64,000 nucleotides of DNA from Phoronis australis (taxonomy: Eukaryota; Animalia; Phoronida): positions 382,547 through 446,546 of the forward strand of contig NMRA01000244.1 of the NCBI GenBank assembly GCA_002633005.1, given 5' to 3'. The notes beneath the pieces are model-generated. The model had not been told where the DNA came from. It searched no databases and was given only the letters and a program-made list of their open reading frames with translations. Of the stretch, positions 1,442 through 45,158 are shown in pieces; the stretch's first letter is position 1; every line of letters begins with the position of its first letter. Both the position numbers and the translations under genes were made by a program.

Positions 1442-1569
1442 CTGGGTTTGTGTCGTTTCTTTTTCTTCATACTGTCCAAACCATCCTGTAGCTCTACTTC
1501 AACATGTCCAGGACCTCCATCCTCATGCTGTCTGGTCTTCTTCACCTTTTTGCCACTAGGGGGCTTTGT
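1442..1569 (-). CDS. Probable additional 3' exon (TKPPSGKKVKK...MKKKKRHKP)
   Basis: Phase-0 acceptor gacag, phase-2 donor AG|gtaggg, open frame. Confidence 0.45.
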
Positions 1570-3714: not shown

Positions 3715-3929
3715 CTGCATCCTGTTCATTATGACAGTGTTGTTAACAGCTTTCTTCATACGCCCATGTTCCCAAGGTCCTTGAGTGCCATCAATGAACA
3801 TAAAGTCTTCCTCAGAGCTCTCATTTGACTGCATGCTGACTTCTGCCGTATTCACATGGCTGTCTTGCTCTGTGTCAGCCACTACAGTGCTGCCACCTTG
3901 TATTGGATTGCTTTTTTCCGTACTATCAT
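3715..3929 (-). CDS. Probable additional 3' exon of gene A (DDSTEKSNP...NRMQ); second copy at 2522-2736
   Basis: ttttctatag acceptor (phase 1) and CAG|gttagt donor; matches the phase-1 donor AAG|gttggt at 7390. Confidence 0.5.
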
Positions 3930-7331: not shown

Positions 7332-8443
7332 TTATGAGCAGTGATACAAACGTGTACTGTAAGCAATCTGAAGATAACACATCCACCAACCTTGTACAGA
7401 ACCTCCGAGACAGTCTTCTTCAGAAATCATCTGTACAGACTTTGTTTGATTCGTCTTGAATGCCATAGCGGCAGCCAACTTTGTCTTGGTTGGGCCTGGC
7501 ACCCTTGGTGCCAATACCCTCTCCTCCTGTGCTGTTTGCTGTCCAAGAATGGTATACTGTCCATAACCTACTTGCTTTGGGCCTTGGCTGTATCCCAGTG
7601 ACGACATTCGTTGACCAGCTTTCTTTAGCACTGGTACAGTCGTGAATCCAAACGATCTGTTCTGTCCAACAGGCCTTGGAACAGTACTTTCAACTTGTTT
7701 CAAAGAAGTCATCTGGTTAGATATACCAACAGCTATTTGACTCCCCCTGAACAAGGACCTCACAAAGCCGTGACGACCAGGAGGGACAACTTCTGCTGGT
7801 GCAATATTGGGAGCCCCTTGAGGCGTGAAATTACCATTTCTTGTACTGCTGTGGACAACTTGCACATTGCCGTCTGTCCCAGCAACAACAGAGCTACTTA
7901 CATTTGTTACAGGTTGTGGTGAGACGGTACTGGGAGTTCTCTGTAACATAGCAATCATTTCATCGTATTTGTTTTTCCGTCGACCCAAAGCCTGGACTTC
8001 TTGAATAGAGCGTAACTTTTTCCAGTTAATAGTCACTGGTCCACCACCCATTCGTCTACCAACCCGTTTCTTGGACTTTCTCATGGCTTTTGTCATAGAT
8101 ATATACTGGCGAATCATCTTGGCAGCTTGTCTGAAGCCCAACTTGGCTTTACTTTGAGGCACTGCCAACTCAACTTGAGGGTCCTCTTGTCTTACTCTAA
8201 TTTGGCGAATCATCTCCCAGTTGAGCACCCTCTGGTGGTCACTTATGAATGACCCAATAGACATAGCAGACTGCAGTCTCAAGTACATCAAGACTTGAGT
8301 AGCGACTTTCTTGAAAGAAAACTTCCTGACTTTCTTAGGCTGAACAACGACCTTTTTGGCCTTAGGAGGGAGGGTAATGCCCATGTTAGCTGCTTGCATT
8401 TCATTGAAATTTATTTTGGTCAATCCACCTTTTCCAGGTAATC
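7332..8443 (-). CDS. Gene A basic C-terminal exon (stop at 7332, or spliced out at the 7391 donor)
   Basis: Lies within the 391-aa ORF; tttcag acceptor in phase 1; basic amphipathic segments. Confidence 0.82.
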
Positions 8444-11400
8444 CTGAAATTAACAAAACACAAATAAAGTAATTAAAAGTTACCATCACGAACATTTGGG
8501 TTTGCATGACAACAAAAGCCTGTTGATTTCACATTTATTACTTTGAAGTAATAAAGACAAGATTACTTACTGTCACCTTGCATTCACTTTCTGTCATTTA
8601 AAGCTTTACTCAAATTGACCACCATCTCCCACCAAAAGTTAGAAGAATTTTATTTTCAAACTTACAACTTGACCACCATCCATCACCACACTTAGCAGAA
8701 TTTCAAACATACAACTTGACCATCTCTCATCATGGTTAGCAGTATTTCAAACAGACAACTTGACCAACACCCCTCACCACAGTTAGCAGTATTTCAAACA
8801 GACAACTTGACCAACACCCCTCACCACAGTTAGCAGTATTTCAAACATACAACTTGACCACCATCCGTCACCACATTTGGCAGTATTTCAAACACAAAAT
8901 TTGACCACCATCTCTGACAAGACGCAGTATTTCAAACACACAACTTGACCACCACCCCTCACCATGGCAACCAGTATTCCAAACATACAAAGTAACTCAC
9001 CCTTATTCTCCATTGTCTCCAGCCTTCCTCTATATCTGTCTTCCATGTCACCATGGTTCTCTTTTGAAACTCTACCAAAAGTATGATTGGTTGGTCTATT
9101 GTGATGCACAAAGCCATGTTTTACAGGCAGCGCCTCCTGTCTGTCATCACTCCACTCATCTTCTTGCTGTATTCCACTAAATGACCTTTGAACCTGAGTT
9201 CCCACTGCATCACCATTTGTGGATTGAGTTGAACCATGAATTGCCTCGTGATAGGCCATATTTTGATGTGCTGGTATATATCTAGGTGACTTGAACTCCA
9301 GTGAACTGTGACTTCCTACAGGGGCCCTGGTTGGTGACTGGTCAATTCCATTTCCTACTTGACCTAGTGAAGTAACCAACTGCCTCGACCCAAGAGAGGT
9401 CTGACTGCCCATAGGGGCTCTAGTTGGTGAGTGGTCATAATTATTATCCCCACAACCAACATCGTGACTGTATGAAGCGACCAGCTGTCTTGATCCGAGT
9501 GAAGTCTGGCTTCCCATCCGTGATCTGGGTGACTTCCAAAATGAAGACTGTTCATTGTGGTTATGTGTAGGAGCAAATTTGCCTGATCCTTGCTGCATAA
9601 GAGGTTGACTTAGCTTGAGGTTAAATCTCATCTCACCAGATGGCGCAAACATAGCACTGTTCATGTCATGTTGTGCAGAAGTATTTAGGTTAAAGTTGTG
9701 AGAAGTGCTGCGTCTAATAGCTTGTCTTCTGAAACCTCTGGGCTCTGATTGTTCAGATTTATTCATAGCGTTCATAAAAGCATTTGACGACAAGTTGCTA
9801 GATACTGTTGGATGTGTACCGGCCATGATAGTAATACATCAAAGTCTTTGAAAGGAATTTTTGCCTTTCTAATAATAGTAAATAAGATCGGGCTGGTTCG
9901 CTAGAAAAAGAAAGAAGAAACCATGAAAACATGCACAGGGAAGGTAAACAGAGAGAACTATAATACCAGGGCGATAAATTTGAAGTAATATCACACAAAG
10001 TTCTAAGAAGAAATTTGATCACAAAAATAAACAAGTAATTACTGTTCATGTACTGTAAGGAACAGATCTAGAAAAGATGAACAAAGTAGTTCCAAACACT
10101 TGAGCAGGTACTAGAAAAACTTAACGTAGAGATATGTGTGCAGTTAATAACTTGTAAAAAGGTTGCAACTATAAGTTTGATGAGTTTGTCAGTGTAAAAC
10201 AAATCAAAGTAAACTGCAAAATGCACACACCACACACTGCAATCAACGTTTTACCTTTCAGTGCAGGTAGCGCCTGTTTGCTGTACAGTCGCTGTTCATA
10301 CTGTGAAGACAGGGCGTGCTGCTGTTGCAGAAACTGGTGCTGATGCTGTTGAAAATGCTGGTGCTGCGATGGGATGTAGTGTGTAGCCCTCTGGTGTAGG
10401 GGTTGTTGACTTGTAGAGAGATGCTGCTGCATAGGGTACTGTTGGTTTTGGTGGATGAGGTCAGCAGGATATGCTGGGAGAAGCAGTGACAAGGTGGAGG
10501 TTAAGAGCAAGGGATTTGATTGGATGTTCGGATAACATACAGGATTGTATGATAGTAAAACAGTGAAATCAGAGTTACATATTGGTAAGAAAGTAGTAAC
10601 AAAAATGTTATAAACCCCAGCTCTGTAACAAAATGACAGCCCAACTAAGAGTAATTAAATTTAGTTTATCGATAATTATGGCATTTTGAAGACCAAAACA
10701 ACAATCCATAAAAAAACAGAAAAATTCACATCACTTACCAACGCTACTACACATTCAAGTTCTAAAGGCGTGGGATTTAGTAAAGTGGACCCATAATTCT
10801 TAACTTGAGGATAGTTATCAGTTAATTATGTTAAGTCATTTTACCATTCATAACATGTGTACAACCCGGACATGCACCCAAACTTACCTTGTGGGTGGGA
10901 TTGTTGATATTGTCTCACATCCTCACACTCTTTGAATGGTGCGAAGGGTGTGTGGTCCGTATGTAAGGGGGCTAGGGTCTCCGTGGTGATACTTGGATCT
11001 TTGTATATGTGCTCCACAGGGAATGGATCTATGTCATTAGCTAGAGAAACAAAGGTATTAATTATAAAATAATAAGTGCTGCCGGAATACAATAAAAATT
11101 GTCCAGTCTGGGACAGTGAAAATGAATAATTTTCGTTAAGGTCGGAATTTGCACCAAATTTTGGAAATGTTAAGTTATCAGCAGTCCCATTTTAAGAATT
11201 ATGATCACCGCCAAATGATCATTTACGTCGACGTTACACACTGTGAGGACATGCAGGAACATTTTTGACAATTTTATGAAAAGACAAATCTATCTTAGCC
11301 TCTGAAATGAAATGCAGTGTCTGGTTTCTTTTAGAAAGAGAACAAATAAGCCATAATCCCCTGTGTCCCAATCTTTAAAAAAAAACCCATTTTCACTTGA

Positions 11401-14400
11401 ATTTGGCTGTCCAAAATTTCAGACATTGTCTCATAGACAAGCTGAATTTATTTTTAATGTAAATAATAGGCTCCACCATCAGTTTTTTTTTTCGTCCACA
11501 AGAAACAAAAGTTCCCTACAATGAGTTTATAAGCAAGATTCATGCTGCAGTTTCTTAATTACAATCACTCAATCAATGATAACAGTGTGTAATTATAACA
11601 ATGTAATTACAGTGTAATTATGAAATAAAAAAAGATTTTGACAATAAAAGGCATGATCTTGAGCCACTGGTAAAACTCAAAACGTAGAAAATCTTCATAA
11701 AATTTTAACCAAAAACAGGTTAATTCAACTGTAAAGGACATTATGAACGATAAAACAGATCAGAATGCTTCTGTTTTGAAAAACAGAAAGTCACCATTAT
11801 GTTTTTATAGATACCTTGGGCAAGAAATTGGAAGAATTCATACCAACTGAAAATTTAATACAGTTTGCACAGACTTAGGTGAAATTATACTAAATAATAG
11901 AGAAAGCAGCAGAATTTGCTTTAATGCTCTCTTGAGACAAATCACACGAATAATGTATAGTTCACCTGTCCCCAGGTGTTTAATTATTAACTGTTATTCT
12001 GTTGATATTGGTTACGCAGGTATACCCAAGTCATGACACGAACATTCCCGTTCATTACTTCTTTACTGTAGTACAAAGAGTCTGTCAAAGAAATTTACTA
12101 TTACATCTAAAGTATAGGCTGAAAGGAGATTTTTGAAGAACACCTTTGAAAAGTTACCGAAAGTGAAAAGTTTAAATTTATCTGAATAAAACACACTTGT
12201 CAAACACTAGTAAGCATTCAATTTTTAAAAAAATATACAATATTCAAACTTAACAGTACCATTGAAGCCAAAATTTAACAGACAAAAGTAGCATTCACTT
12301 GCTACTAGTGGTTTCAATCAATGAATAAGAACACCAAACCAAGATGGCATCCATGTACGATGGACTAAAACTTGTAAGACGTATTACAGATGGGTCGCAA
12401 GAACAAAACATTGCTATGGCTGAAATAATTATACAACACTTAAAATGTACTGAAGTGCTTGTAAGAGCCCTGTGATAACTCCCATTGCATATACAATGTA
12501 TGTTCAACGAATACCAAAACACAACTACTAGTCTTTTACTTAAAGTGCTAAAAAACACAAAACTAAACCGTAAGGGTAATTTCCAATGGGAGAAATGTAC
12601 TCTGGTTGTAAATAAGTTTTTTACAAAATTGTACAATATTCTTCAATTTTGTTAATAAGCTAAACGGAAAAGTTTCAATCAAATAATGTAAACTTAAGAC
12701 ATATTTTTGAGTCCCATCTCATTCTATGTATTAGCTTCACAGTTTCAACGAAAACTTGTAAATTTTATCAGACCTTTCCTCATTTAACTTTGAATTCTTA
12801 CACTAAGACTGAAATGATTCCTACACAGCTTATTTCGCAGGTTGTCTACGCAGCATGACATATGTGGTCAGTTTACATACAACTTCAAGACCACCCTGTC
12901 AATCCAGTGTACACAGAATCAGCAAGTCTTGACCATCAAGTTAATTTCACCACCAGATAAAAGAAAAATCTACAGCTAACAGCAAATTGAAAATAATGAA
13001 GGTATGAATTCAAGTGAACTGTTTATAATTAAAGTTGACGGTCTTTGCATCATTCACAAAGTGTATAAACACGAGTAACCTACCTAGGACTGTGTCCAAA
13101 AGCCCTCTGAATAAACTTCCTTGCGGTAACCAATGGTAACCACCAAACATAGTTTCACTTATTAATATATGATGACAATAATTTCCTTTACCGAATCCTG
13201 TCATGCAAGATTTCCATGAATATTTAAGAGACCCCAGTCCCTGAGTAACGCCAGAATTTCACAGTTGAAAGTAATCATTCCCAGAACACCACACTTACCA
13301 TGATTTTGCTCAAGGCCGTATTACCAATGAATTCATATGCACCTCAATATTGCAGAGTTCGTTAAAAATGATACGACATTCACTGTTGGATAACTCATCT
13401 CAGAGGCACTACAGTCGAGTTATACTAAGAACAGGCTTTTAACAAAAAACACAGAAGAGCAAGAAAACAAATTAGTGCAAAAGTTTTCAAAATAAAGACA
13501 TACTGTTAAAGCTTAGAGCAACGTCAACATGCAAAGTGTAGAGAGGTGAGAGCCTGTTAGTACCTTGTGTGTGACCAGGTGGGTGGTCATGTGATGCCAG
13601 TGGTTTTACATCATGGCCTCCAACTGAACCCTTTAACTGGCTATCTTTCCACTTAGAAGTGTTTGGTAGATTTGTGTCTTGGTCACCAGTCTTTATTGAA
13701 GTACACAATCCGGACCTCATCAATGATCCCGTGTTTACGCCATCGTCACCAGCAATGTGAGCCCCAATGGCATGACTTTCATTATTGCAGTCACCAACAA
13801 TGCTTTTAGAAGGGAGATTGGATTGCACATCAGATGGTGGGTCAACAATGGCCCCTGAAACTCCTGATGGTGAATCCACAACCACGACCGACACCCCTGA
13901 TGGATGGTGCCCGTTCTGCGAGGTCACCTCTGAAGACATATTTACTCCACTGTCTGTCACAGTCCTCCCACTAGGGTCGCTTTGGTGAGACAGAACACAC
14001 GTGTTAGGTTTGCCATCAACAATGCCTGGTTCAACAACTGATGACGATTGTCCAATTGCCTCCTCCCCCATTTTGTCACATCCGTCTGCTTCACCTGCCC
14101 CATGTGACCTCACGTCATAAGCACTCTCCACATAGCCAGACCGACATGAGTATGAAGAACTGCTAGAATGTATATCCTCCTCACCAGATTCAACACGTTC
14201 AGACAATAATGAATCCCCCTTCAGCTGGCTTGTCCTAGTATCACAACCACTTGCTACAACACATTCACCCTCAGAAGTTAGCTGCTTCTCATCAATGTTC
14301 TTTGACTTCCCATAATCACAGACTTTTTTAACCCTCCTTCCACCCATCAGGGGATCAGTGGTTTCCTCAAAATGCCTGTCTTTGGTTACAACCTTCTCCA

Positions 14401-17400
14401 CCCCACCCGTTGATTTACTTTTTCCACACTTTAAGTCGACATTGCCATCATTTGCCACTGCTCTTTGAGCTGCACGTGAATTGGAATTTGTCTGTGAATT
14501 TCTTGCCAAACTGTTGTGGGAGGCGACAAGTCTTGGTGATGGTCTAAGTGGTGTACATCCCGTGAGGCTGCTGTTCGCAGCGGTGGTGGTTTCAGGGTTG
14601 ATTGAGGGGTACATAGCATGTGGCTCATTATCACCTGGGTGAGACAAATGGTGACAACGTCGAGTGTCATACAAGCAGGCTGTGATGAACCATATCAAGC
14701 ATCACACAACAGTTAAGACAATTTATTACAATGTCTATACAATAATGTATAAGTTGTAAGTCATGGTACACATAGGACAGTGCAATAACATAAATCCCAA
14801 GGACAACACATTCTCTGCTTGGCACACAAAGAAAACCTCATTCAGTAAATGAAATCAAGATTGCTGCAGTTTCAATTAAAAAGTGATCGTCTGTCACCTC
14901 TCAAAAAGATGGCAATGAATATATTTTGAGACGAAATCTTGAGAAATTTAAATTAACAAATGAATATAAAGTCAAATGTCTGGGGGCGTTTTGGCAAACT
15001 GAAGTGCTTGACCCCATTCCTTATCAATAGTTTTAAAAGTTGTGAAAATGACTACAACATGACACTGCCCCCTCCCTCACTGCCCCCTCCCTCACTGCCC
15101 CTCTCCCTAAGTGAAATAGAAGCACACGTCAAGCAGACAACACTGTCATTACCTTGGTCCACACCTGGCATCATCCCTGATCCTTCACTGACTTCAATGT
15201 ATTCACAGTAGAGGTCCTCCTGACCCAACCGTGCTTCCACAGGGGGCAGCACTATATCTGCTGTTTCCAAGGGTAACACTACCTCAAGTTCATTAGACAT
15301 CTTTGGTTTACCACCTCCTGTAACCATAGTTTAATTGCTATATTGATATCTTGAAAGGGTTTGAACATGATGAAACAGAACAGCGTACACTCATAAATTA
15401 CCACACTTTGATAGCTGTTGGTCACCATTAAAGTAACCTTTGACATGGACCACTTGCAATCATGAAAATAGTTTCAAATGGCCCCATAGTCAAATTGCAG
15501 TACTGGGTTTCCAAAGAGCTCATTGCTCGTTATTCCTTGATAGAAGGTTCTACAAGTCGACTTGTCATGGCATGTCATTGTATATACTGAGTATTGTCTC
15601 AAAGTATTACGAACGTCAACCCAGAAATCGCTTTTCATGTGAGACAGGAACACCTGGAGACCAATTTTATTGGTGATAAGTGGTCTAACTTAAATCAAGA
15701 GTTCACTTCTTGAAGAGAACATGGGATTGGAGGCACTAGAAGTCACATTTTGTTTATTTCCAATAATGCATAGTCACCCAAAGTTCTACAACTACCAACA
15801 GTAGCTCATCAGAACTCCACCTAGTGAGAGAACAATACACTAACAAAATCTCAATACCATACTTCCTTCAAACTCATATCTTGAAGCCTGGAAACTCTTA
15901 AAATCTTGATCAAGCTGCTTGAAAGCCTACCTACCATTTCCTGGTAATGCCATGACAACAAACTTGTATGGGATGTGTAGCTGACAGCCTTCAATAACCA
16001 CTTTACACCTGTTGGTGTCCTCATCTGGTAACACCTACAGAAACATCAAGAACATAATTATCAACAAGCGTGTTAGTAACGAGTGTTGAACACCAGTAAC
16101 CAGAGTTCATATCAGGTGTTCATCATTAGTAATCAAGATTAGAAACAGGTGTTTGTCAATAGTAATCAGTGTTAGTAACAGCAGCTGCTGTCCATCATTA
16201 CTATTCATAGTGACAGGTGTTTGTAATTAGTAATCAGTGTTAGCTAATTATTACTAATCGGTGTTTATCATTACTAATCATAGTAACAGGTGTTTGCAAT
16301 TAGTAATCAGTGTTAGTAACAGGTGCTAATCATTACTAATCAGTGTTAGTAACAGCTGTCCATCATTACTTATCATAGTAACAGGTGTTTGTAATTAGTA
16401 ATCAGTGTTAGTAATAACAGGTGCTAATCATTACTAATCGGTGTTAGTAACAGCTGTTCATCATTATCAATCATAGTAACAGGTGCTTGTAATTAGTAGT
16501 CAGTAGCAGGTGCTAATGATTACTAATCAGTGTTAGTAACAGACTAAACAACACATTCAATGATTACCTTGCTGCCACACTGTTGACCATTTAGGTACAA
16601 GACGTATCCAGAGATTGGCTGGACTTGAGTGGACACTGACGTCCAGACTATGGAGAGAGCATCTGGTTCATCTGTTGTCTCCAGGGAGATGACAGGCCCT
16701 CCAGTCTCCGTGGTAGCTGGACACTTCATAAGCTGTAGCACAGCAACATTGGGTTGACTATGAAGCAGCATTGACTGAACTGTGCATGACTGAGGTCCCA
16801 GGAAACTTGATTTAAAACTTCAACCATCACGAGGGAAATTGAACTTAAAATTAACCAGGGCAAATTTTATTAACTAGATTCAGCTTATCTGCAAAAATGA
16901 ACAGTCTAAATAGTGCAAAGTCTATGTAAAGCATGTAGAAAACACTATGACCTAAGCGCGCTTAAGTTTTAATTGATAAAAAATTAAAAATATAACGAAT
17001 ATTCCATATTCAAAGGCTTGACAAATAAAACTATCAGAAGATTGAACATTTGGCTAAAGTAAGTGTACTCACGCTACATTATCTCACTAATTCAGGATGC
17101 AATACAGGAGATGAAAAATTCTATTTTCTATTTTTCCCCATAAAACATAATACAAGTTTTGAACTGCATCTGCCATAACACAATATCAGTGAAATTGTGG
17201 ACAACCTCAACAAAGTTATGCAAAATTGCCGAAGAATTATATTGTACATGATGATTCTTACCAGGTTATTTGACTTGTGTGGAAGAAACATTGGATCGAA
17301 GGAGAAGACTTGGAGCTGAGTGTCATAGGAGGCGCCACCAGCAAGGCCAGCTACAAACACACTATTGTGATGTGCAGGAAACATGGCGCAGTATGATACA

Positions 17401-32400: not shown

Positions 32401-35400
32401 TCAAATGTGGCCTGCAAGAAAAAGAATTATTTTTCTTAGGTTATGTGTGGCGGAACCATTTAAGTCAAATTCATTTTCAAATTACTGCTTTGTTCATGGA
32501 ACAAATACAGATGATCTAAATCACTCAAATGTCGAAATACCTTGGGTCACAAATCATAGTAAAAAGTCCTCATTTTGGGGCACATCGAGATAGACAACAA
32601 AATTGACCGTTCAGGAAATTTCACTTTGTTTTAAGCATGGTCAGCACAGTATAGCTGTGACCTCTTGAAGACATTCATTATACATGGTCAGCACTGTACA
32701 GCTGTGACCTCTTGAAGACATTCACTATACATGGTAAGCACTGTACAACTGTGGCTTCTTGAAGACATTCATTATACATGGTCAGCACTGTACAGCTGTG
32801 ACCTCTTTAAGACATTCATTATACATGGTCAACACTGTACAGCTGTGACCTCTTGACGACATTCATTATACATTGACTAATTTCTCTAATTGGTGATTGC
32901 TCAGGAGGGCAGTACTGGGAATATGAAAGAACTCAATTCCTGACTAGCGTTATTGGCATTGCACAAAACAAACAGTTTACCATCCCTTAAATAATTCATT
33001 CCCCACGAGGAAATATAACCTTAACCTTCTCCAGTTGCACAGCACGTTCCCACATCCCACCTTAACTAACAACAAATGGTCACCTTGAACTATTGTCACA
33101 TGCAAGAATAGAGTACGTGAGGTCACATCAAAAAGCTACATAGTGCTACATATTGATTCCAGCAGTTGCTGCTCTAAACCGGCGCCAACGGCTATCAACA
33201 GTGCCAGCGAACATTACCTTATAACTTTGTTGATTTGATGAAATTAGTATTTAACAATGTCACCTGATATATAAAAGCCTTGATGTCTCAGACACCAACA
33301 GAAAAGCTCTAACTTAAATGAGAAAAAGGAAGATTTCCCTCCTCGAAGAAATCTCTAAGTAAGGGGTCAAATGAGAGCCAAACGCGAGCGTCGTAATATA
33401 GGAGGGTTTCGGGGAAAGCTCACCGGAAATTTCTTTGCAATACGATGCTGAGATGCATTTCAAGCCTTTCTGAGAGATTTCTAGTCATAGTTTATAAACA
33501 ATTGTTATAAACAACTCAAGGCTGGAGCTTATGTCAAGTGGACGGGACATCAAAAGGATTTTGTAAATTCTCTCTAAAGTGGAAGATCTTCTGTTGACTG
33601 TAAAACAGTTGGAGCTTCTGGCAACAGCTCACACTACTCGTGTCGATCTAATTCATTCAGTTGAATCACATTAGTGCGAAATCTTGCATTATAAAAATGT
33701 GGGTAAGAAGCACGCAATGGCAAAGTTAACATGTTAAAAAATATGGACTTGCAGGAAACAATCATTTGAATCTTAGAGAGAAAATTGTCGCTAATCTTTA
33801 ATCAAATCATAACTATCACCGAGTTCGAGCAATCGCCATTATCATGCTTTCAGAGGTACTGAGTCTGGAGCTTCCATTATGGAAACAGACTTTTATGAGC
33901 CAAGTGAACTCAGACTTTTATCACTTGTGAAACTTAGATTTCTTGATCGATTTTTTACCGAGTGACATCACAATTTACAGGAAAATATTACCATAACAAT
34001 ACACAAGATTTTGCAATCTGCAGAGTTAACATTAAATAGAGTGAAAAGGTACCAGTATGTCTATGCACAAATCTATGAGCTTACCTTATATGGCTCGTCA
34101 GGAGGGTGGTCTATCTCTGGTGCATCTATCTGGTATATACCATGCGGTTTCCTGCACTGAAATATGAACACAATGTTATGATCAAGCACAGGTGCATCTA
34201 TCTGGTATGCACCATTTTGTTAACTGTATTGTAATATGAACCTAATGCTATGATCAACCACATGTGCATCTATCTGGTATGCACCATTTTGTTAACTGTA
34301 TTGTAATATGAACCTAATGTTATGATCAACCACATGTGCATCTATTTGGTATGCACCATTTTGTTAACTGTATTGTAATATGAACCTAATGTTATGATCA
34401 ACCACACGTGCATCTATCTGATATACACCAAGTTGTTTACTGTATCACAATGTGAACACAATGTTATGATCAACCACATGTGCATCTATCTGGTATACAC
34501 CAAGTTGTTTACTGTATTGTAATATGAACCTAATATTATGATTAACCACATGTGTGTCTATCTGGTATACACCAAGTTGTTTACTGTATTGTAATATGAA
34601 CCTAATGTTATGATCAACCACATGTGTGTCTATCTGGTATACACCATGTTAACTGTATTGTAATATGAACCTAATGTTATGATCAACCACATGTGCATCT
34701 ATCTGGTATGCACCATTTTGTTTACTGTATTGTAATATGAATCTAATGTTATGATCAACCACACGTGCATCTATCTGATATACACCAAGTTGTTTACTGT
34801 ATTGTAATATGAACCTAATGTTATGATCAACCACATGTGTGTCTATCTGGTATACACCAAGTTGTTTACTGTATTGTAATATGAGCCTAATGTTATGATT
34901 AACCACATGTGTGTCTATCTGGTATACACCAAGTTGTTTACTGTATTGTAATATGAACCTAATGTTATGATTAACCACATGTGCATCTATCTCGTATACA
35001 CCAAGTTGTTTACTGTATTTGTAATATGAACATATCATCAGTTTCTGGTTGTTACTTGAAGGGACTGCAGTGGTAGACAACACCAACTTACCTTCAATCT
35101 GTCCCAGTACCACCACACTCGGTCTCCCGCCTCCACCAAGAGGATCATGGGATTGAACGAGCGGTCCAACACTTCCACTCGATGCTCCCTGTAAACAAAC
35201 ATTCATCCAGGCACGTGAAGTCCTCTGTGAAACCAGTGTTTTGGTTCATGTTAGTGTTTGTTGGTTAATATGGTGAGCGGGCATTCTTGATTACACTAGA
35301 CTACACCATACATAATATGGAGTTGACTGATTACTTCACTGGTAAAACTGACTACTGCTGACTTCAATCAATTCAGTTTGAAGTTATGATCTTGGCTTGA

Positions 35401-38400
35401 CTTACATAGTTTAACCTACTTAGCTCTGTATCAGACTTTAAGGCAAAATAAGCATCACCAATTAAAAGGTAAAAACAGAAACACATCAGTACCAAATCGA
35501 TGTGAAAACCGAATAACACTGATCGTTAAACCAAAATACAGCTATTTAAGGTTTTAGAAAAAAGTCAACTGTAAAAATTGTAAAACTAGAATTTAAAAAT
35601 TATTGACACAATTTGGTTTCATGCCATTACAGTTATATTAAGCCCTGTTCAGCTGTCTAAAAACAGTGAATTTGGTCTTTTACCCTCATAAAGCAGTATC
35701 ATAATATTCCTTTCTGTCATAGGATTCTAATACCAGCAAGAACATCAAAACCATCAGCGAATCTAGAAAACGCTAGTTTATATGGACTGACCAACCTAAA
35801 AATTGCAAATTTGAAAATGGCACCTGGCCAGCCCTAAAATTTCAAAACTGAAAATGGTGCAACCACCACTGACTCAAGGAAACGCTCCACTTTTTGGGGG
35901 CCTGTCAAACCTAAAATAGTAAATGTGAAAATGGTGCCGGGCCAACTCTAAAAACAGCAAACTTAGAATGAGTGCATGTATGCATTATCCGCGACATGAG
36001 TTGGTGACAGACATGGAATCCTATCACGGTAGGGTATAATGACCTTGTAACAGACATGGAATCCTATCACGGTAGGGTATAATGACCTTGTAACAGACAT
36101 GGAATCCTATCACAGTAGAGTATAATAAGAGTAAAAGGCCCAATTCCATTTTTGTCTTTTAGCAAGCTACATTGGGTGTAATGCAGCAACTTAAGTATTA
36201 AACCATAGCGCCACTGGTGTGTGTTTGTGGAACTAGTACACAGGAACACATTAAGTACTAACTTCTGTACAGTCTTGACATGAACAATACATAGATAGGA
36301 CTCTCCAATGGTATAACCTTCAGTCTGGAAGTAATACAATCCAGGGTAGCGCAGTTCTTGACTGTAGGAGCCATATTGAGTGGCGACGAGACCCGATCTA
36401 CAAATGGACAGTATACGATTAAAACTTTGTATAATCATGGCAATTTATGCAGCTGATAAAAATCAAAACAGTAAAAGACTGATACTTCAGAGTAACTGAC
36501 ATAGGAACACATTCCTTTCAAGTTTAAACAAGCTATTGCAACTGCCATAAAACCAGGAGACAATACTGGAGGGTAGACATTTTGCAATTTACGAAACGCG
36601 CCAAAAATGACAACTGCACAGACAACATACTACAGGGCTTAGAATTACCAATGACGAAAAAGAGGAAAAATTTCCAGGTGACGTATAGTTCCAGAAATAA
36701 ATACGCTTGCATGATAGAAATATTTTTTGTGTTGTAAATCTTAGCTGAAATAAAATTTTTGCATAAATAAAGTCAAAATAATGATAAAAAAGAGACAAAA
36801 AAGGGAGCTGAAAAACAAATAAGAAGAAAGTGAAACTAAAAAAGAGGAAAATTAATCCTCTTAAAAGAGAAAAATTCCAAGCCCTGAGAGTACAATGCTT
36901 ACACTGCTTTTTCATCTTTAACAAAGCCGCTGTGCTTAGAACAGTACTTCACTTCCCAGACTGAGTGCGGAATTTCACACTTCCAGTTGAACTTGACCAC
37001 TGACCCTTCATCCACACTGACCCTGCAGGGGTCAAAGCCAATGTCTGTGACCTCAATGACAGTCTCAGCACGTGGTTTCACAGTCACGGTAAGTGGAGTG
37101 CAGCGTAGACCAGCACTAGATGGCAGGACAGTAGAATCACAGATCATTGCTAGTCACTATAGAACAAGATAATTATTAGGCATTGTGTTTATTGATTCCA
37201 GACTCTTTGTACAGCAGCCACGTCAGACTAACGTATCAAAAAAGCACTTAATATAAATAAAATTACGGCAAAGTTTCTTCAAAATTAGAACACAATATGG
37301 CTAAACAGTAAAATTTCACTTTATCAGATTTTTCAACAAAAGTAAACAAAAAGGTAATTTTGCTTGATAATTTGAAAACATTATATGTTACGGCTGTCCT
37401 CCACAAACACAATTAAATTTTGACTATTTTTGGCCATACAGAGAGCATTTGAAATTTAAAATGTTAAATTTTTAGGCCATTGCTTTTGTTCAAATCTGAA
37501 GAAGCTTCACCGCATAGTCTATTATCAAAGATATGTCTGTACATGGCTTAAATTAATTTATTTGACCCACTTATACAGCTGTTGTAAGTTTCTAAAGAAT
37601 TCCCAACTTTATACACGACTCATATGTTTAGGTACATGTCAATGCCGACTACCTGACAAACTTGTACTCTCCTTCGAGTGTGAAGAGCTGAGAGAGCGCC
37701 CCCTTGAGGCAGGCTGGTCCACTGTTGTAGCCTCCCAATACAGGGCGGAATGACTCGCCATCATGAACAACCTAGAACAGTATGACATTAAGTACCAGCT
37801 ACAGTTACATGTTAATTATTCTCAGACACAAGCGCAATTTCTCTTTTCAAAAGTTTAAAGCACCAACATAACCCATGTTCTAAAATAAAGAACATCAACT
37901 TCAGCACATGGAATAACTAATAACGAAAAAAGAGGAAAAATTTCCAGGTGATGTATCGTTCCAAAAATAAATAAGCTTGTGTGATAGAAATATTTTTGTG
38001 TTGTATAATTTGAGTGAAATCAACTTTTTTGCATTAAGTCAAAATAATAATAAAATAAGGTGACGAAAAAACAAGAAACTTTCGGCAAATCAAAAGTAAA
38101 GAGGAAAATTCCAAACCCTGGACATGCAGCCCAAGTCGCAGTATCGAGTTGCTTTCTTTTGCTAGAATTGATTGGTTACACTAGTGGAATACTGGCGGGC
38201 CACAATCATGGCCGTACTGGCGTTGGCAACTACACTAATCCAACAAAAAGACAAGCCGGGCTTAACTGGCATGATCTAAACACAGCATTAAACCTGTCCC
38301 TCTTTTTTGATTTAGGCAGCTTACGGTAATGAAATTGGTTCCAAAACTTTCCTTAGTCAAAACGAGTGATTTACTGGGCTTTGACCAAACTAGCAGTTAT

Positions 38401-41400
38401 GAAATTGGTCCCTGAAAACTGGCAGTTTGTTTTCCTTCACTGCAGAATAATTCAGCCTCAGTGCAACAGGAAGATGTACTCCTGTTCGCAATCAAAAAAG
38501 AGGGACAGGTTTAATACAGCCTTAAGATCATGCTTGTTAAGCTGTTTGTCTTTTGTTGGGCCCTGTTAGTTGCTGAGTAAGGAACAATTGTGATCAATTT
38601 TATGACATTACGTGGCCTAAATGGAAATTCTTTTGACAGAAAGTTGCACACTCAGGGTAAATGACATCCACTTTAAGCAATAACTTGAGTGGACACGAGA
38701 CTTCATCTCAAGCTTGTATAAACCATTTCTTGGTACCGGTCGGGTATAGCGGTCACTGATTTAGAGAACAAGGCAATCACTGAATAACAGGCCCGTTATT
38801 TTGTGGATCGATGAAACTGCGATTCTCTAAATCAGGGATCGCTATGTCCGACCATTGCCCATTTCTTGAAACTTCAATGACAGGGCCACAAAACCATAGA
38901 CGACAGGCCTACTATAACCTATGCTAAAACGCACTCAGTTCGGCGCTGCCGTGCCAGGCCACTGGCATTGTCAACCTAGCATTGTCACGTCGATTTCTTA
39001 ATGATTGGGCAGTGTGACTGCGCTACCTGACTGAAAGTGAAAGTTTCACTAGTGAAATACAGATCAACCTCCGCTATCAGTACAACGCAAGTTTGTCAGC
39101 TCGATGGACAATTCGATAATACACTACTGAAACCAAAAGAACGCAACTAACTATCAGAATATTTTCAAACAACCCGCCAGCCACTCAGCAAACATCATTG
39201 ACTTGATTTACTAAATCTTTGACGTGATGAGGATGGTTACAAGCGACATCTGGTGGTAATTGCTTAATCTAAAGATCGCGTATGCTTAAACCTTTGAATA
39301 CTTATTTGGGCAATCAGGTAAAAAATTTTGTTCAGTGTACAGAATTTTTGTAATTATTGGCCTCATGGTCACCCCTTTTCTCCTTTAACGTAACTAGTGT
39401 CAAAGAATATGGAGGAATGAGTGAGTGATGAATCGAGATCGCCAATAGTTGAAAAATGGCCCCCTTTGGCCCTACTCTAGTGACTGGCTTCGGCCAACCC
39501 CGCGATGGCTTAGGCGTCCCAGTGACCTTCATTACCGGCGGCCTCACGGGCAAGCCCGCGATCGGACTGGTTACCAGTGTTTGAATTTAGCCAGTCAACC
39601 CTTTAGTTTTCTGAACTTTACATTTTCAGTTAAATTTGCGGCCAAAAACATATCATTTCTCGTTACCCGACGATGTGCGTTTCAGCTTACCTGTGTTACG
39701 TTGAATCCATTACCGGTTAATTCATGCCACGAAAAACTGACAACCTAAAAGGTAAACGAGGACACATATTACTGCCTAGTACGTTCTGTTAAATCCAATT
39801 CTTGATCTACACTTATGTATTTCAAGCACCTTCTTAATCATTCTACTTTTCACCATTTCGATATTTTCATTGGTAAAATTCTTCAGTCAATGCACACCCT
39901 TTTTCGGAAAGGAGCGATTTTTTACTCCTGAGCCTATGTAATCCCCACCACTGCCAAAGATACTGCCACTGCACCGCCAAAGCGATGTACGTGTCACGAC
40001 AATGATCAAAAGCCTTGTCTTATCTACGTCATGAACACTGGGAGACGACCAACCCAGCCTAGAGGCGGATATATTTCTTCATTCGTATGCTTTTCGCAAG
40101 AAAAGATAACACTAGACAACAGTAAGAAGTCTTGGCATGTTATAACTGGAACTCATAGGTACATCATTTTAGTGTTATATAAAGCTTACCTGTCAAAATT
40201 AACCACTAGATGTATATGCGGTGTTGAAAATTTGAAAAGATGCATTGCGTACGATCTTGAATTTGTTGCATGTTTTATTTTGTCCACTAAACGCAACCGT
40301 CGAACTCAATATTGTAGGTAGCGCGTGCATCTTGCACTGAGCGTTGCAGTGAAGGAAGGACCAGTTAACGTAATATATAATCTAATAAATAAATAATAAA
40401 CTCCGTTTTTAATAGGAGTTTTCCACATGTTTTTTCGTTTCGCTCACACGAGATTCGCTCTGGCCGAGGTGATCGATACATATTGCGTATTGCAACGTGA
40501 TTTATCATTGTTATAGTAGTCTGAACGTAACAAAAGAACCTTTTGTATCCTCAGGCGCAAATATTATGAAAATTCTGACGTGTTTATAGAATTTTGTATC
40601 ACTAAGCCGAACACGGAGATGTGTTGGGATTTTTTAAACCAATTGCAGCATTGCGGAACAAATTCTCAATACACTCTCAAGGCGTCATTGTACCATATTA
40701 AGACATGTGTGCAGAAAAACACAACTCGGCTATTAGGCCAAGAGGCTGGTATATTAAAAACTATCTAGAGCTACGTTCCAGTCGTAAGAAACATTGATCT
40801 GAAGCTATCCCCACCCCCTCGACCACCTTACCTGCCCCTCGTTGATGGTAAGGTGTTGGACTGAGAATCCCATCTTTGTTATTTTCACTTCTTGTGGACC
40901 GTCTGCCAACGAACAGGACATCAAAGTAGAATGTAACCAGTGACAAGAATAAAAACACAAACAAAAAACAAGAAAATAAGTGCATCACTTTTTGATTGAT
41001 AAAAGACAAATCATTGGGCCGTTATTTGATACTAGCGTTTCGCAAGCGAAAGTTTAAGATTGTCTGAAATGGGATCGCGTAACTTATCGTCAGTATTAAT
41101 TTTAAAAGAAGATTGCAGTTACACTGACCACATTCTTACTTTAAAAAGAAAGGAATTCCTTTAAATTGCTACCTGACAAGAATCTGCTGATAAATAAAAC
41201 GAGTATCAATGCTAGTTTGAATAATGTTTCGAATAAAAACTATCATATTAGATGAAGTAAAATATTTGAGCATTTTTATCTGATGGGCAGTCGGTAATCT
41301 GCCGCTAACGATCAGATAAATTCAATGAAGACATGAACTTAACTAAAGTAATAGTAATCAACAACAAGATATTGGTTGGCTCGTACATCCTGCAAAATAT

Positions 41401-43578
41401 TTGGCAAAACAGTGAGACAAACATTATTGTATACACCCTGATGTGGCAGCTGAGGGCCGCAGCACGGCGCGCCACCTGTGTACCTGACGCTATCACAAAT
41501 CCTCTCTGCCTCACTACGTCGATCGTTTCCATGTAGTTAAGACATCGCGATCTCTCGAGTTGGGGCAGTGAAACACCGATAGACACGTTCTCGGAGTCAT
41601 TTTTAACTTGAGACTTCCTACCCTGGACCCCGGAAATATCCGGCAGCGTCACATGCTGTGCTGGATCGGCCTCGGTAGGGAGTGTCTTATTATTCACAGC
41701 CTCCGAACTCTCACTATGATTTTCCTGGCTCATTCCCTGTATCCGCGCTAACGGGAAGACACGCTTAGGTCTCTTTTTAGTCTTTGATTTCCCCATAAAT
41801 AAATTGGTCAACATTGTAATTAACACTGCTGCCTCGTTGATAGTATCAATATAGATTGACCGCTATTTACACGTATGTACGCGTAACACAATATTTCGCG
41901 CTTTCCGGAGAATTAATTACACAATGAAAACACAAAATGTGTCAATGCTATGGAGCTAGAAGAAGACTTGTCAGTTCTTCACGTTATCAATTATTTTGAC
42001 CATTCCGATTGCAAGGCATTCGTTTAAATCTTTTCACCCACGCTTAGTAGTAGAATACTTTAATCTTCAGACGAATATTATTCTGTAAGAGTGACCAACG
42101 TTACTACAGTATCCTCGCGCTCGTCACTGCGGCACGAAGGCAGCAATAAACTTTAGTGTATCTTTCTCCGCTCGCAAAATTCGTCGCACAATCTCTAGAT
42201 TTCAACCGAACTTGAACTCTGCACACAGAATGTACAATTCTGCGTGAATACTGCTCTCTGACTGTTGATGTGGTCATACATTGTCGTCTATTTTATGTCA
42301 CCAATGTTGACGTCTATATTGAAATGTCACGGTACCCCTGGAGAGGTAACATTTGCATCGCAGATCGAAGATTTGATTAGCCAGCCATTTATATAATTCG
42401 ATCACCTAAATAATAAAAGACCCATTCCACTGTGACGGCATGCAAATTGTACTGTCTTTAATGTTAAATTACGTTTGTACATATCAGCACTGTAAGTTGA
42501 CCTTAACTGAGTCTTAACTAAATAAAAAAGTTATTGTATTGTGGACTAGTGTGATCCGCACCGTACCTATTTTATTGAATAAAAAGATCGTTGAATGGAT
42601 TGCATGTAGCATTACATGCGCGCACCCAGGACGCTCGGGGGCTCGAACACCCCCCCGCATTTGGCGAAGTGGGCAAAAATCCGCTTCAGAGAAAAAAACT
42701 CCCGAAAAATGTAGAAAACGAGACAAACGTCCACTAAAAAGGCGGGAACTATCAAAATTCGGCTCATGCACTTTTAATAGCTAAGAACGTACCTTGGTAA
42801 ATCTTTGTAAAAGCTCCACATTCTCCAAGCCCCCCATATTTCAGGCTGGGTGCGCGCATGCATTGTACACATTTACCGATGGAGATTTTTGCGAGGCGAT
42901 TCGACATTTTTGTACGCGTAGTAACTAGCTTCAATAAAACTAAGTAAAAAATATCTAACTGAAAAAAAACATCACAAATATGAAATAGGCATTTTCCGTA
43001 CAGAGGTTACGAAATAGAGCAAATAATTATATGCATATGTATACCATCAAACTTCCCCGTAATTGTGCTTGTCTAGAGATTACAACATTGTTGACCAATA
43101 GACGACCTTCTCCGACCTTTTCTTACATGGGCGCGCACCATAGGGGGCTGGGGTTTGGGGGGGGGGGGCGGCTATAGCCCCCACTTATTTCAGTGCTGCG
43201 CCGCCAACGTTTTCGATTTAGATAATTAATAAAACTTTCCTGTTTATCTATTGTAGTGCTTGACACTTGTTATTTTGCCGTCGGTAGATTATTATAATCA
43301 AACCAACAGACTACCTTCACACTTAAAAAGTCTTTGACTTAGATCACTGAATACCCTTTACACTTACAAGCTGAGATCGTTGAGAACTGAGACATCCTTG
43401 ACATAGGCCGAGACCCCCGCGAGCTCTTCGAACCCGAGGAGTAGACAGAGTCCGATCCCGTGCTCAACTGTTTAAGAGGTTTGGTCAAGAGGGCTCCTCC
43501 CGCTCCACCATTAGGGAGTGACTTCGTGACCTTTTCAGGAACGAGCACTTCGTTCTGTGTCGAAGCGCCTGAACCCAT
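7332..43578 (-). CDS. Uncharacterised 2270-aa multidomain protein (gene A): MG start, 7 cupredoxin-like domains, CHB_HEX_C/Fn3-associated domain, 2 FN3 domains, disordered region, basic C-terminal region; 32 coding exons
   Basis: 32 GT-AG exons join in phase to 6813 nt: 43578-43368, 40902-40832, 39744-39691, 37771-37653, 37115-36903, 36397-36263, 35188-35092, 34156-34085, 32411-32377, 31434-31277, 30863-30726, 29615-29458, 29226-29110, 28623-28511, 28029-27978, 27744-27575, 26196-25992, 24303-24226, 24003-23847, 21292-21138, 19311-19205, 18779-18695, 18290-18165, 17414-17262, 16732-16568, 16034-15935, 15317-15153, 14679-13564, 11040-10888, 10473-10255, 9804-9001, 8443-7332. The motif V.V...GF.P..L.V..GD.V.W.W...H...G.Y.F recurs 7 times across exon joins. 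Confidence 0.85.
8612..8990. repeat. 44-47-bp minisatellite, about 8 copies, abutting the donor at 9000
   Basis: Unit ACAACTTGACCACCACCCCTCACCACAGTTAGCAGTATTTCAAAC. Confidence 0.9.
9001..9804 (-). CDS. Gene A exon, Ser-rich, with internal MGSQTSLGSRQLV repeats
   Basis: Lies within the 312-aa ORF; cag/gtgagt; phase 1-1. Confidence 0.82.
10255..10473 (-). CDS. Gene A exon, Gln/His-rich
   Basis: YPADLIHQNQQYPMQQH...; cag/gtaaaa; phase 1-1. Confidence 0.8.
10888..11040 (-). CDS. Gene A exon
   Basis: NDIDPFPVEHIYKDP...QSHPQ; tag/gtaagt; phase 1-1. Confidence 0.78.
12050..13210 (-). mobile_element. Highly degraded LINE RT relic
   Basis: LPQGSL...LGRLLVFIHFVND resembles GVPQGSVLGPLLFLIFVND; boundaries approximate. 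Confidence 0.5.
13564..14679 (-). CDS. Gene A large exon, Ser/Gly/Asp-rich disordered region
   Basis: Lies within the 403-aa ORF; phase 1 at both ends (cag / G|gtacta). Confidence 0.75.
15153..15317 (-). CDS. Gene A exon, end of FN3 domain 2
   Basis: GGKPKMSNELEVVLPLE...; cag/gtaatg. Confidence 0.85.
15935..16034 (-). CDS. Gene A exon, FN3 domain 2
   Basis: VLPDEDTNRCKVVIEGCQLHIPYKFVVMALPGN; tag/gtaggt. Confidence 0.86.
16065..16545. repeat. Degenerate tandem repeat filling an intron
   Basis: Recurrent TAATCAGTGTTAGTAACAG(G/C)TG and CATTACTAATC. Confidence 0.85.
16568..16732 (-). CDS. Gene A exon, FN3 domain 2
   Basis: ...LSIVWTSVSTQVQPISGYVLYLNGQQCGSK; cag/gtaatc. Confidence 0.88.
17262..17414 (-). 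CDS. Gene A exon, FN3 domain 1
   Basis: ITFNNV...VAGLAGGASYDTQLQVF...KSNNL; cag/gtaaga. Confidence 0.86.
18165..18290 (-). CDS. Gene A exon, FN3 domain 1
   Basis: ...CMEIFWEFPPENALDLIKGYQ; cag/gtaata. Confidence 0.85.
18695..18779 (-). CDS. Gene A linker exon
   Basis: RFWVLSNDTQSVHSEEGEQQVELPKQDQ; ttttttcag/gtaaag. Confidence 0.8.
19205..19311 (-). CDS. Gene A exon, end of CHB_HEX_C/Fn3-associated domain
   Basis: VYTDDKGIVLNKSGLCFIRAMAVSEMSENSDVFTS (IRA.A...S.V pattern); cag/gtaagt. Confidence 0.88.
19360..20520 (-). mobile_element. Degraded CR1/L2-type LINE: reverse transcriptase fragment and 3' end
   Basis: FIDLKKVFDTVDHTILL, GVPQGSILGPLLF, GLIYDQNLKFSHHVDYI...PHLDYCLPVWG; contains stops, frameshifts and deletions. 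Confidence 0.88.
21138..21292 (-). CDS. Gene A exon, CHB_HEX_C/Fn3-associated domain
   Basis: PTPFI...VRLDC...KIYYTVDGTLP motif; cag/gtatgt. Confidence 0.88.
21917..23534. mobile_element. Non-autonomous hAT-like DNA transposon, 1.6 kb, with a probable transposase relic
   Basis: TIR CAGGGCTTGGAAT / ATTCCAAGCCTTG; 6-bp direct repeat CTAATA; internal frameshifted W..DYFVE...CQCL segment. Confidence 0.65.
23847..24003 (-). CDS. Gene A exon, end of repeat 7
   Basis: APLSVVEGSLSFNSGKPVPQNSFLYTFDEVGVFGVASQGAPGYAGVVIV; aag/gtgagt. Confidence 0.86.
24226..24303 (-). CDS. Gene A exon, repeat 7
   Basis: NQTILWTWKDCQEAHNIIHVNPPDHE; tag/gtgcgt. Confidence 0.86.
24889..25372. mobile_element. TA-flanked MITE (Tc1/mariner-pogo type)
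   Basis: TIR CCGGGATTT(C/T)CCGTAGA(A/T)AA(C/G)CCCAT, with TA on both sides. Confidence 0.78.
25992..26196 (-). CDS. Gene A exon, repeats 6-7
   Basis: RCMNRAVVEKGVYHFTS...VIRVDSTGFHPEKVHIRM; tag/gtgagt. Confidence 0.86.
27575..27744 (-). CDS. Gene A exon, repeat 6
   Basis: VCEVMVTSHVDPDPLVCALNDVVVWTFKGLRQHDV...; cag/gtatgg. Confidence 0.86.
27978..28029 (-). CDS. Gene A exon, end of repeat 5
   Basis: QSLSKIFGAVVVTSQPS; cag/gtaagt. Confidence 0.83.
28511..28623 (-). CDS. Gene A exon, repeat 5
   Basis: VSHQGQFIESGFCSGAPRDSPSAFVHQFTACGVYYYI; cag/gtacag. Confidence 0.87.
29110..29226 (-). CDS. Gene A exon, repeat 5
   Basis: NYTIHVTDSGFEPKILTVHPSDRVWWVWQQGDKQHNIVQ; cag/gtgggt. Confidence 0.88.
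29458..29615 (-). CDS. Gene A exon, repeat 4
   Basis: MCRYLDSEAQ...GIGVYHFGVTD...TIIVQPGSR; tttacag/gtgagg. Confidence 0.83.
29592..29975. repeat. 49-bp minisatellite, about 8 copies, derived from an acceptor junction
   Basis: CAGAGTCC recurs at 29592, 29641, 29690, 29739, 29787, 29836, 29885. Confidence 0.95.
30726..30863 (-). CDS. Gene A exon, repeat 4
   Basis: LTFADSGDRIWWTWDMSEMIHNF...; cag/gtgact. Confidence 0.86.
31277..31434 (-). CDS. Gene A exon, repeats 3-4
   Basis: KGGLLCHTFDKPGVFFYSDQ...GTVIVRP...IELSSDGFTP; cag/gtaaat. Confidence 0.88.
32377..32411 (-). CDS. Gene A small exon, repeat 3
   Basis: ATFDGFRWPSP; strong polypyrimidine tract with cag, gttagt donor; needed to keep phase. 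Confidence 0.78.
32636..32875. repeat. 47-bp minisatellite, about 5 copies
   Basis: Unit CATGGTCAGCACTGTACAGCTGTGACCTCTTGAAGACATTCATTATA. Confidence 0.92.
34085..34156 (-). CDS. Gene A exon, repeat 3
   Basis: CRKPHGIYQIDAPEIDHPPDEPYK; ttcag/gtaagc. Confidence 0.82.
34121..35033. repeat. 72-bp minisatellite, about 12-13 copies, derived from an acceptor junction
   Basis: TGCATCTA recurs at 34121, 34193, 34265, 34337 and onward; the first unit overlaps exon 34085-34156. Confidence 0.95.
35092..35188 (-). CDS. Gene A exon, repeat 3
   Basis: EHRVEVLDRSFNPMILLVEAGDRVWWYWDRLK; cag/gtaagt. Confidence 0.88.
36006..36125. repeat. 43-bp tandem repeat, about 2.7 copies
   Basis: CAGACATGGAATCCTATCAC at 36008, 36051, 36094. 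Confidence 0.9.
36263..36397 (-). CDS. Gene A exon, repeat 2
   Basis: SGLVATQYGSYSQELRYPGLYYFQTEGY...CIVHVK; tag/gttagt. Confidence 0.85.
36633..36886. mobile_element. MITE of the same CAGGGCTTGGAAT family; related partial copy at about 37909-38120
   Basis: TIR CAGGGCTTAGAATT / AATTCCAAGCCCTG; shared internal AAGAGGAAAAATTTCCAGGTGA. Confidence 0.7.
36903..37115 (-). CDS. Gene A exon, repeats 1-2
   Basis: AGLRCTPLTVTVKP...IGFDPCRVSVDEGSVVKFNWKCEIPHSV; tag/gtaagc. Confidence 0.87.
37653..37771 (-). CDS. Gene A exon, cupredoxin-like repeat 1
   Basis: VVHDGESFRPVLGGYNSGPACLKGALSQLFTLEGEYKFV; tag/gtagt. Confidence 0.85.
38239..38561. mobile_element. MITE or foldback element with about 75-bp imperfect inverted arms
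   Basis: ATTAAACCTGTCCCTCTTTTTTGATT pairs with AATCAAAAAAGAGGGACAGGTTTAAT, with extended flanking complementarity. Confidence 0.65.
39691..39744 (-). CDS. Gene A exon, cupredoxin-like repeat 1
   Basis: VVSFSWHELTGNGFNVTQ; tag/gtaagc. Confidence 0.85.
40832..40902 (-). CDS. Gene A exon, start of cupredoxin-like repeat 1
   Basis: GPQEVKITKMGFSVQHLTINEGQ; cag acceptor, gtaagg donor. Confidence 0.85.
41484..41796 (-). CDS. Gene A probable alternative first coding exon (MGKSKTKKRPKRVFP...)
   Basis: Open frame of 104 codons in a CpG-rich region; phase-1 donor TCAG|gtacac is compatible with exon 40902. Confidence 0.5.
42615..42860. mobile_element. MITE with 15-bp TIR
   Basis: CATGCGCGCACCCAG ... 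CTGGGTGCGCGCATG; no clear TSD. Confidence 0.65.
43368..43578 (-). CDS. Gene A first coding exon (MGSGASTQ..., N-myristoylation consensus)
   Basis: ATG at 43578; MGxxxS; Ser-rich; phase-1 donor T|gtaagt. Confidence 0.75.
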
Positions 43579-45145: not shown

Positions 45146-45158
45146 GTTGCTAAGCAAC
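45146..45158. promoter_or_regulatory. RFX X-box at the putative promoter of gene A
   Basis: GTTGCTAAGCAAC fits GTNRCN(N0-3)RGYAAC; CpG-rich context just upstream of a donor site. Confidence 0.6.

Follow-up and report, generated by a model that had tools for sequence, protein, structure and literature searches.

In animals, to our knowledge, every described cupredoxin fold belongs to a protein that is secreted, lumenal, at the surface or in an organelle. The 64,000-nucleotide stretch of Phoronis australis DNA analysed here (the window) holds a minus-strand gene that appears to place seven such domains in an intracellular protein, and this raises the question of what the protein is and where it acts. 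We rebuilt the gene from open frames and splice signals as 32 phase-compatible exons, all with GT-AG junctions, running from an ATG at 43578 to a stop at 7332-7334. That the 32 exons join in phase, as the first-pass annotation had it, stands, with one ambiguity at the acceptor of exon 31: the strongest-looking site (9900) leads to a stop after 10 codons and a product of 1,627 aa, while the weaker-looking site at 9804 keeps the frame and gives the spliced product of 2,255 aa used here. Homologue searches with single exons gave no match; residues 1-1139 of the spliced product are colinear with independent gene models at 44-48% identity in molluscs, 50-56% in Lineus, Capitella and Owenia, and 36-44% in echinoderms and the hemichordate.

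Homology is a stronger check of this model than the RNA reads are, and judged by these sequence comparisons the gene is real. The reads come from four raw RNA runs under the same species label, three of them stranded, of which about 18-19% each was read, and their depth over the gene is mostly 0-3. Intron 18165/17414 is spanned exactly by 3 reads and intron 19205/18779 by 6, which makes 2 of the 15 introns of the 3′ stretch and 2 of 31 in the whole model; the joints listed for the 5′ stretch include none of its 16 introns. The RNA-seq check proposed at first pass thus bears out two introns. In most non-repeat bins of runs X1 and X2 the signal is on the minus strand only, and the antisense signal described next is absent from both. 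Run X3 has no sense signal and alone contains a spliced antisense RNA (12840..21872, plus strand) that overlaps coding exons 20 and 23-25; its GT-AG joints lead from 12999 to 16593, 18258 or 21000 and from 18317/18340 to 21002, its depth reaches 75, and the pieces of it that were checked hold no long ORF.

The seven repeats (aa 71-786) are encoded by exons 2-19 (23847..40902, minus strand). Every one of them is significant against a profile of the other six, beating all 500 shuffles with scores of 14-61 bits against shuffle maxima of 5.5-9.7, and the earlier count of seven tandem copies is thereby upheld. A profile built from the window exons only matches plastocyanin (E 2e-5), with amicyanin and pseudoazurin next, while single-exon PDB searches returned chance matches only. 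Folds were computed on orthologues, which stand in for the window's own spliced protein: the AF2 model of the Patella caerulea orthologue (1,089 aa, 48% identical) has a pLDDT of 75.6 and a pTM of 0.65, and that of an oyster fragment covering repeats 1-3 and part of 4 has a pLDDT of 77.7 and a pTM of 0.69, with about 100 low-confidence residues. In these orthologue models repeats 5 and 3 match the purple cupredoxin 5fc9 (Z 13.7, rmsd 1.7 and Z 12.6, rmsd 1.6, respectively, each with 87 aligned residues), repeat 7 matches cupredoxins at Z 10.2-10.5 (amicyanin at Z 10.2), and repeats 1 and 2 match cupredoxin domains at Z 6.2-6.4; repeats 4 and 6 have no single structural match and are homologous by profile. 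The repeats are therefore predicted to fold as cupredoxins, in agreement with the first-pass assignment, and the high pTM points to a rigid packing between adjacent repeats. Pfam matches to C1q on some homologues sit on the cupredoxin repeats and were rejected as cross-hits. Within this part of the gene, minisatellites at 29560-30050 and 34150-35040 are made up of acceptor-region sequence from exons 12 and 8, and in each only the last copy leads into the exon.

Compared with type-1 blue copper cupredoxins (plastocyanin, amicyanin and the Nitrosopumilus purple cupredoxin 5fc9), the repeats are alike in fold and sequence pattern and often keep the first His, but Cys, second His and Met are absent, and the seven copies are part of a giant protein that lacks a signal or transit peptide. 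Multicopper oxidases and their relatives (ceruloplasmin, factor V/VIII, two-domain laccases, nitrite reductase) likewise have several cupredoxin domains per chain; they are secreted or lumenal, whereas the protein described here has no secretion signal or anchor helix. Superposed over the whole chain, the predicted orthologue models fit ceruloplasmin, factor VIII and laccases poorly (TM 0.07-0.17, rmsd 18-35), and the repeats are nearer to single-domain plastocyanin types than to multicopper oxidases. Fibrocystin-L has a Cys-less plastocyanin-like domain in an extracellular IPT/G8 protein; no sequence of that type was identified among the matches listed.

If the repeats were blue copper sites, a Cys should occupy the ligand column. 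In window repeats 1-7 that position is S, T, D, V, S, S and S, and the seven columns, taken over 34 aligned rows, show a single Cys, so the repeats are not blue copper sites. No orthologue has a copper motif, and the second His and the Met of the copper loop are missing from all seven window repeats. The loss of the copper loop noted at first pass thus extends, as far as the type-1 Cys is concerned, to the whole family. The first His ligand is present in 6 of the 7 window repeats and is conserved family-wide only in repeats 2, 3, 5 and 7 (22/34, 28/32, 25/31 and 26/31 rows, respectively). Repeat 3, with Asp at the Cys position in 29/30 rows and a Cys four residues before the His in 25/33, would be the best candidate for a leftover metal site. 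These residues bear on an alternative that we consider unlikely, namely that the protein is a membrane-bound metal or redox sensor which holds a non-blue metal through the kept His and Asp/Ser/Thr and relays a thiol signal through the thioredoxin-like end of its long orthologues. Besides the conserved His and the Asp and Cys of repeat 3, it would draw on Cys-less metal-binding cupredoxins such as EfeO, found among the fold matches (Z 9.2), and on the CxxS, CxxA or CxxC motifs of the thioredoxin-like end; but one or two ligands rarely form a site, the second His and loop Met are gone, and His-Ser pairs can be purely structural. Such a sensor would be compatible with a scaffold role and does not exclude it.

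Where the protein resides is best approached from its N-terminus. Exon 1 (43368..43578, minus strand) encodes the start MGSGAS, a myristoylation consensus with small residues at positions 3-5, followed by a low-complexity spacer. Among 42 named family records, 24 begin with MGxxx[ST], those of the choanoflagellate and both sponges included; in 9 others an N-terminal extension precedes the motif, and the 9 from which it is absent include several partial sequences. These 24 records are related and hence not independent, although the choanoflagellate and the glass sponge are among them. Small or medium residues occupy positions 3-5 in 23 of the 24, with Gly4 in 20, and small residues there are kept from the choanoflagellate to bilaterians while the spacer after them is not conserved. 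We found no signal peptide or TM segment in the window protein (highest 19-residue hydropathy 1.51) and no 19-residue window above 1.98 in the 42 named records, whose N-termini are mostly hydrophilic (11-residue hydropathy ≤2.0, the highest values being in partial or divergent records). Two of the first-pass observations, the MGxxxS start and the lack of a signal peptide or TM segment, therefore hold beyond this species, and they speak for the intracellular, membrane-tethered scaffold proposed there, of which we infer the myristoylation and the tethering. An extracellular or lumenal multi-cupredoxin protein whose signal-peptide exon had been missed is highly improbable: there is an in-frame acceptor 14 bases upstream of the ATG, and the prokaryotic tandem-cupredoxin proteins that match the family mostly have hydrophobic N-termini, but the hydropathy of the 42 records and the conservation of MGxxxS stand against it. 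Intron 1 holds an open 104-codon frame (41484-41796, minus strand) that starts MGKSKT followed by basic residues and ends at a phase-1 donor fitting exon 2; it is a possible alternative first exon with a myristoyl-plus-basic start, and has no reads.

Behind the repeats, exons 20-21 (19205..21292, minus strand) encode a CHB_HEX_C/Fn3-associated domain. The Pfam matches of exon 20 (CHB_HEX_C_1, E 3e-6; Fn3_assoc, E 6e-5) confirm the domain call made at first pass, and the domain shows a distant likeness to the N-terminal domain of DZANK1: a family profile matches the DZANK1 structure 11xu at E 7.7e-5 (E 0.2 for the exon alone), the only PDB match of that profile that is neither Fn3 nor cupredoxin. 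DZANK1 and the family have this one small domain in common, and in Pfam scans the zinc ribbons and ankyrin repeats of DZANK1 are absent from the family. Intron 20 also contains a broken LINE-type reverse transcriptase remnant (19800-20565, minus strand), recognised in translation. Exons 22-27 (15153..18779, minus strand) supply the core's conserved end, together with an acidic spacer and a pair of Fn3 domains (aa 906-1106), and it is to exons 20-27 that both read-spanned introns belong. The two Fn3 domains of the earlier account are thus there, but two is not the total for the family, since long orthologues carry about 13 more. In the orthologue models the Fn3 domains match known Fn3 domains at Z 10-11, and in long orthologues they score to Pfam Ig_RIMBP2 at E 1e-9 to 1e-20.

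We consider that the product has about an even chance of being a myristoylated intracellular scaffold linking a membrane, probably that of the cilium or its base, to the cytoskeleton. If the tie to cilia is real, the N-terminus, the promoter region and the domains might each be expected to reflect it. Stephen et al. (PMC6179904) associate a myristoylation consensus with small or medium residues at 3-5 with high-affinity UNC119A binding and release by the ciliary ARL3, and give as high-affinity UNC119A cargoes the ciliary cystin, NPHP3 and GNAT1 and the non-ciliary LCK and FMNL1. Both MGSGAS in the window and 23 of the 24 MGxxx[ST] records fit this cargo motif, with which the likeness to these cargoes ends, there being no homology beyond it; as the non-ciliary LCK and FMNL1 in that paper fit it too, the motif was also counted against a ciliary reading, as were the 18 of 42 records that do not start with MGxxx[ST].

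X-box-like sites lie at 43628, at 44668..44681 (1.1 kb upstream of the ATG) and, as a palindrome, at 45146..45158 (1.6 kb upstream), which makes 3 in the upstream 3 kb against 0.11 expected; the placement is relative to the ATG and not to a mapped transcription start. The whole window is X-box-enriched, with 7 strict sites against a mean of 1.5 and a maximum of 8 in 200 shuffles, some of them in introns. A good splice donor near 45200, with the 45146 site just inside, makes a 5′ UTR exon possible there. Upstream lies a multi-exon F-box/LRR-type gene (~48800-62500, minus strand; X-box-like site at 63940), a candidate FBXL13. Proximity to an FBXL gene counts for little in animals, and the ciliary role suggested at first pass from a nearby RFX box and this neighbour would be argued better from the UNC119-cargo motif, the X-box-like sites and the DZANK1-like domain. 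DZANK1 itself is placed on the transition-zone doublet in a 2026 preprint (bioRxiv 10.64898/2026.06.11.731632).

The Fn3 domains also bear on a different placement, in which a myristoylated scaffold of the cell cortex, not particularly linked to cilia (at the plasma membrane, synapse, muscle or choanocyte collar), organises partners through RIM-binding-protein-like Fn3 domains. We regard this as somewhat doubtful. The Ig_RIMBP2 scores and the match of the family profile to a RIM-binding protein structure would fit it, myristoylation is not specific to cilia, and no vertebrate or cnidarian member stands among the matches listed; on the other hand, residues 3-5 stay small from choanoflagellate to bilaterians while the spacer varies, the X-box-like sites lie upstream, and Pfam scans found no SH3 domain. 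RIM-binding proteins do have intracellular Ig_RIMBP2-type Fn3 in common with the family, but in them SH3 domains flank three Fn3, whereas full-length orthologues have, by Pfam, no SH3 and instead about 15 Fn3, a cupredoxin head and a thioredoxin-like end.

The comparison with long orthologues also bears on where the gene ends. These consist of the core, a variable linker, a long Fn3 array and a thioredoxin-like end, and complete animal members measure 2,850-4,040 aa. Fn3 domains total 15-16 in 9 of the 11 long records tested, 11 in Intoshia and 8 in Oopsacas. A thioredoxin-like motif lies near the end of 23 of 27 long animal records (22 CxxS, 1 CxxA), with Pfam E-values of 3e-4 to 9e-3 that fall below the cut-off, and 23 of the 27 long records (P0184-P0204, P0015, P0023, P0024 and P0027 in the labels of this analysis) have a cluster of RPxS[AS] motifs within their final 200 residues. 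Neither the Fn3 array nor the thioredoxin-like end has a match anywhere in the 64-kb window, where the core is followed by exons 28-31 (9001..14634, minus strand), a long low-complexity linker with low minus-strand read depth for which no homologue was found, and by exon 32 (7332..8443, minus strand). Exon 32 is basic (net +38) and carries a short helix-plus-Trp module twice. This module recurs in three molluscs: Sinanodonta and Lottia have it in the linker of their long forms, and a short Mytilus form has it in its tail. Exon 32 is probably an alternative last exon.

Beyond it lies a further exon A (3715..3929, minus strand, phase 1 to 0) that keeps its frame open, has good splice sites and a fitting phase, and encodes a linker motif common to three annelid orthologues. 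Its three best matches among 27 long orthologues are these three annelids, with scores of 65, 60 and 49; the first two exceed all 200 shuffles and the third was reached by 1 of 200. A further exon B (1442..1569, minus strand, phase 0 to 2) is in phase with exon A and not significant alone, but the pair scores 81 against Owenia, where the shuffle maximum is 71. All tail junctions are phase 1, and therefore any of them can splice to exon A. Neither exon A nor exon B has read support. The first-pass placement of the gene's end at 7332 thus gives way, in view of the length of the orthologues and the phase-compatible exons at 3929-3715 and 1569-1442, to a gene that probably continues past the left edge of the window, the rest being predicted; the protein described here would then be the N-terminal third, with a probable alternative tail, of a family protein of 3,300-4,000 aa. 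That the gene truly ends at 7332 in this species, with exons A and B as relics and the distal Fn3/thioredoxin half either missing or encoded by another gene, seems improbable. Polyadenylation-like hexamers do follow the stop of exon 32, exon 32 has reads, annotations of short forms exist for Mytilus coruscus, Solemya and rotifers, and the distal half has no match within the window; against this stand the open, well-spliced and correctly phased exon A with annelids at the top of its matches, and the exon 32 module inside the linker of the Sinanodonta and Lottia long forms. In the same region, a segment of about 1.2 kb within 1497-3946 is duplicated, the copies being 91-96% identical and joined at an N (2754); the duplication, probably an uncollapsed haplotype, repeats part of exon B and gives exon A a near-identical counterpart at 2522-2736. 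Three blocks of short tandem repeat lie downstream of the exon 32 stop (4888-7018).

The family to which this gene belongs appears both ancient and undescribed, although its domains are known and its proteins are already in databases. The searches scored 7,989 and 7,997 candidates and gave the best 150 of 1,241, with names for the clusters of 30 proteins. The named records comprise 27 molluscs, 3 annelids, a nemertean, Macrostomum, 2 rotifers, the orthonectid Intoshia, 3 echinoderms, a hemichordate, 2 sponges and the choanoflagellate Didymoeca costata, and all family records are labelled uncharacterised, hypothetical or by domain. Orthologues among them include oyster LOC105321045, Capitella CAPTEDRAFT_219540, Macrostomum Mlig016419 and Ptychodera XP_070557721. 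That the protein matches no named gene, as first reported, is thus borne out, with no named orthologue found. No published description of the family, and no evidence on its localisation, tissue expression or presence in proteomes, was found, subscription journals and most supplements lying outside the scope, and the oyster accession is absent from 2 supplementary files of PMC12551290. The nearest rows in a tree are Owenia, Lineus and Capitella; the tree is a quick version in which long branches meet, and was used for nearest rows only. Searched against the ESM Atlas, the Patella orthologue matched no more than generic clusters of the CHB/Fn3 and copper-bind kinds, all below 0.9.

All named carrier groups have motile cilia or flagella, and no arthropod or nematode member is among the matches listed, which agrees in part with the phyletic profile against motile cilia that the first-pass annotation had called for; vertebrate and cnidarian members are equally missing from the matches listed, none of these absences being proof of loss. 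As vertebrates and cnidarians have motile cilia, the family would, going by these matches, not be a universal axoneme part, which counts against the ciliary reading. The Didymoeca costata protein (1,646 aa) combines the myristoylation start with a WW domain, the cupredoxin-like repeats and the CHB domain, and closes with a thioredoxin-like end that carries CxxC; it has no Fn3 array. Thioredoxin-like oxidoreductases have a CxxC active site, which in the family stands in this choanoflagellate protein, against CxxS or CxxA in the long animal records; the window has no such end. The next matches after the family are prokaryotic tandem-cupredoxin surface proteins (e.g. P0045 and P0125 in the labels of this analysis) with plastocyanin-like arrays as here, one of which, P0125, combines plastocyanin-like domains with CHB_HEX_C repeats. 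They differ from the family in their hydrophobic N-termini and mostly intact copper motifs, with about 20-30% identity and no colinear match. This hints that the cupredoxin-CHB module may be of bacterial source, from a prokaryotic protein combining cupredoxin and CHB repeats.

A scaffold of this kind could work as follows. Gly2 would be myristoylated, and UNC119 would bind the small-residue N-terminus at high affinity until ciliary ARL3 released the cargo at the cilium. The rigid, copper-free cupredoxin block would then serve as a protein-binding head beside the membrane, its kept His and Ser/Thr/Asp stabilising the old metal pocket, and a flexible linker would lead to an Fn3 rod spanning to a distal cytoskeletal partner; alternative last exons would give a short form without the rod. 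A more far-reaching version is possible, if tentative: a bacterial-type cupredoxin and CHB module may have become cytoplasmic before the choanoflagellate/animal split, lost its copper, gained the UNC119-type myristoyl tag and, in animals, the Fn3 rod and thioredoxin-like tip, to form, in invertebrates, a giant tether between the ciliary membrane and the axoneme or transition zone. This tether might also sense metal or redox state by way of the leftover His/Asp, and would have been lost from vertebrates and ecdysozoans. Seven cupredoxins in a row that lack copper and are apparently cytoplasmic, conserved between a choanoflagellate, molluscs and echinoderms, would put the fold to a new use. Were it ciliary, the family would be a large unrecognised part of invertebrate cilia, missed by catalogues centred on vertebrates and Chlamydomonas, and its putative function would lie in a family apparently absent from the main model animals and retained even in the reduced parasite Intoshia.
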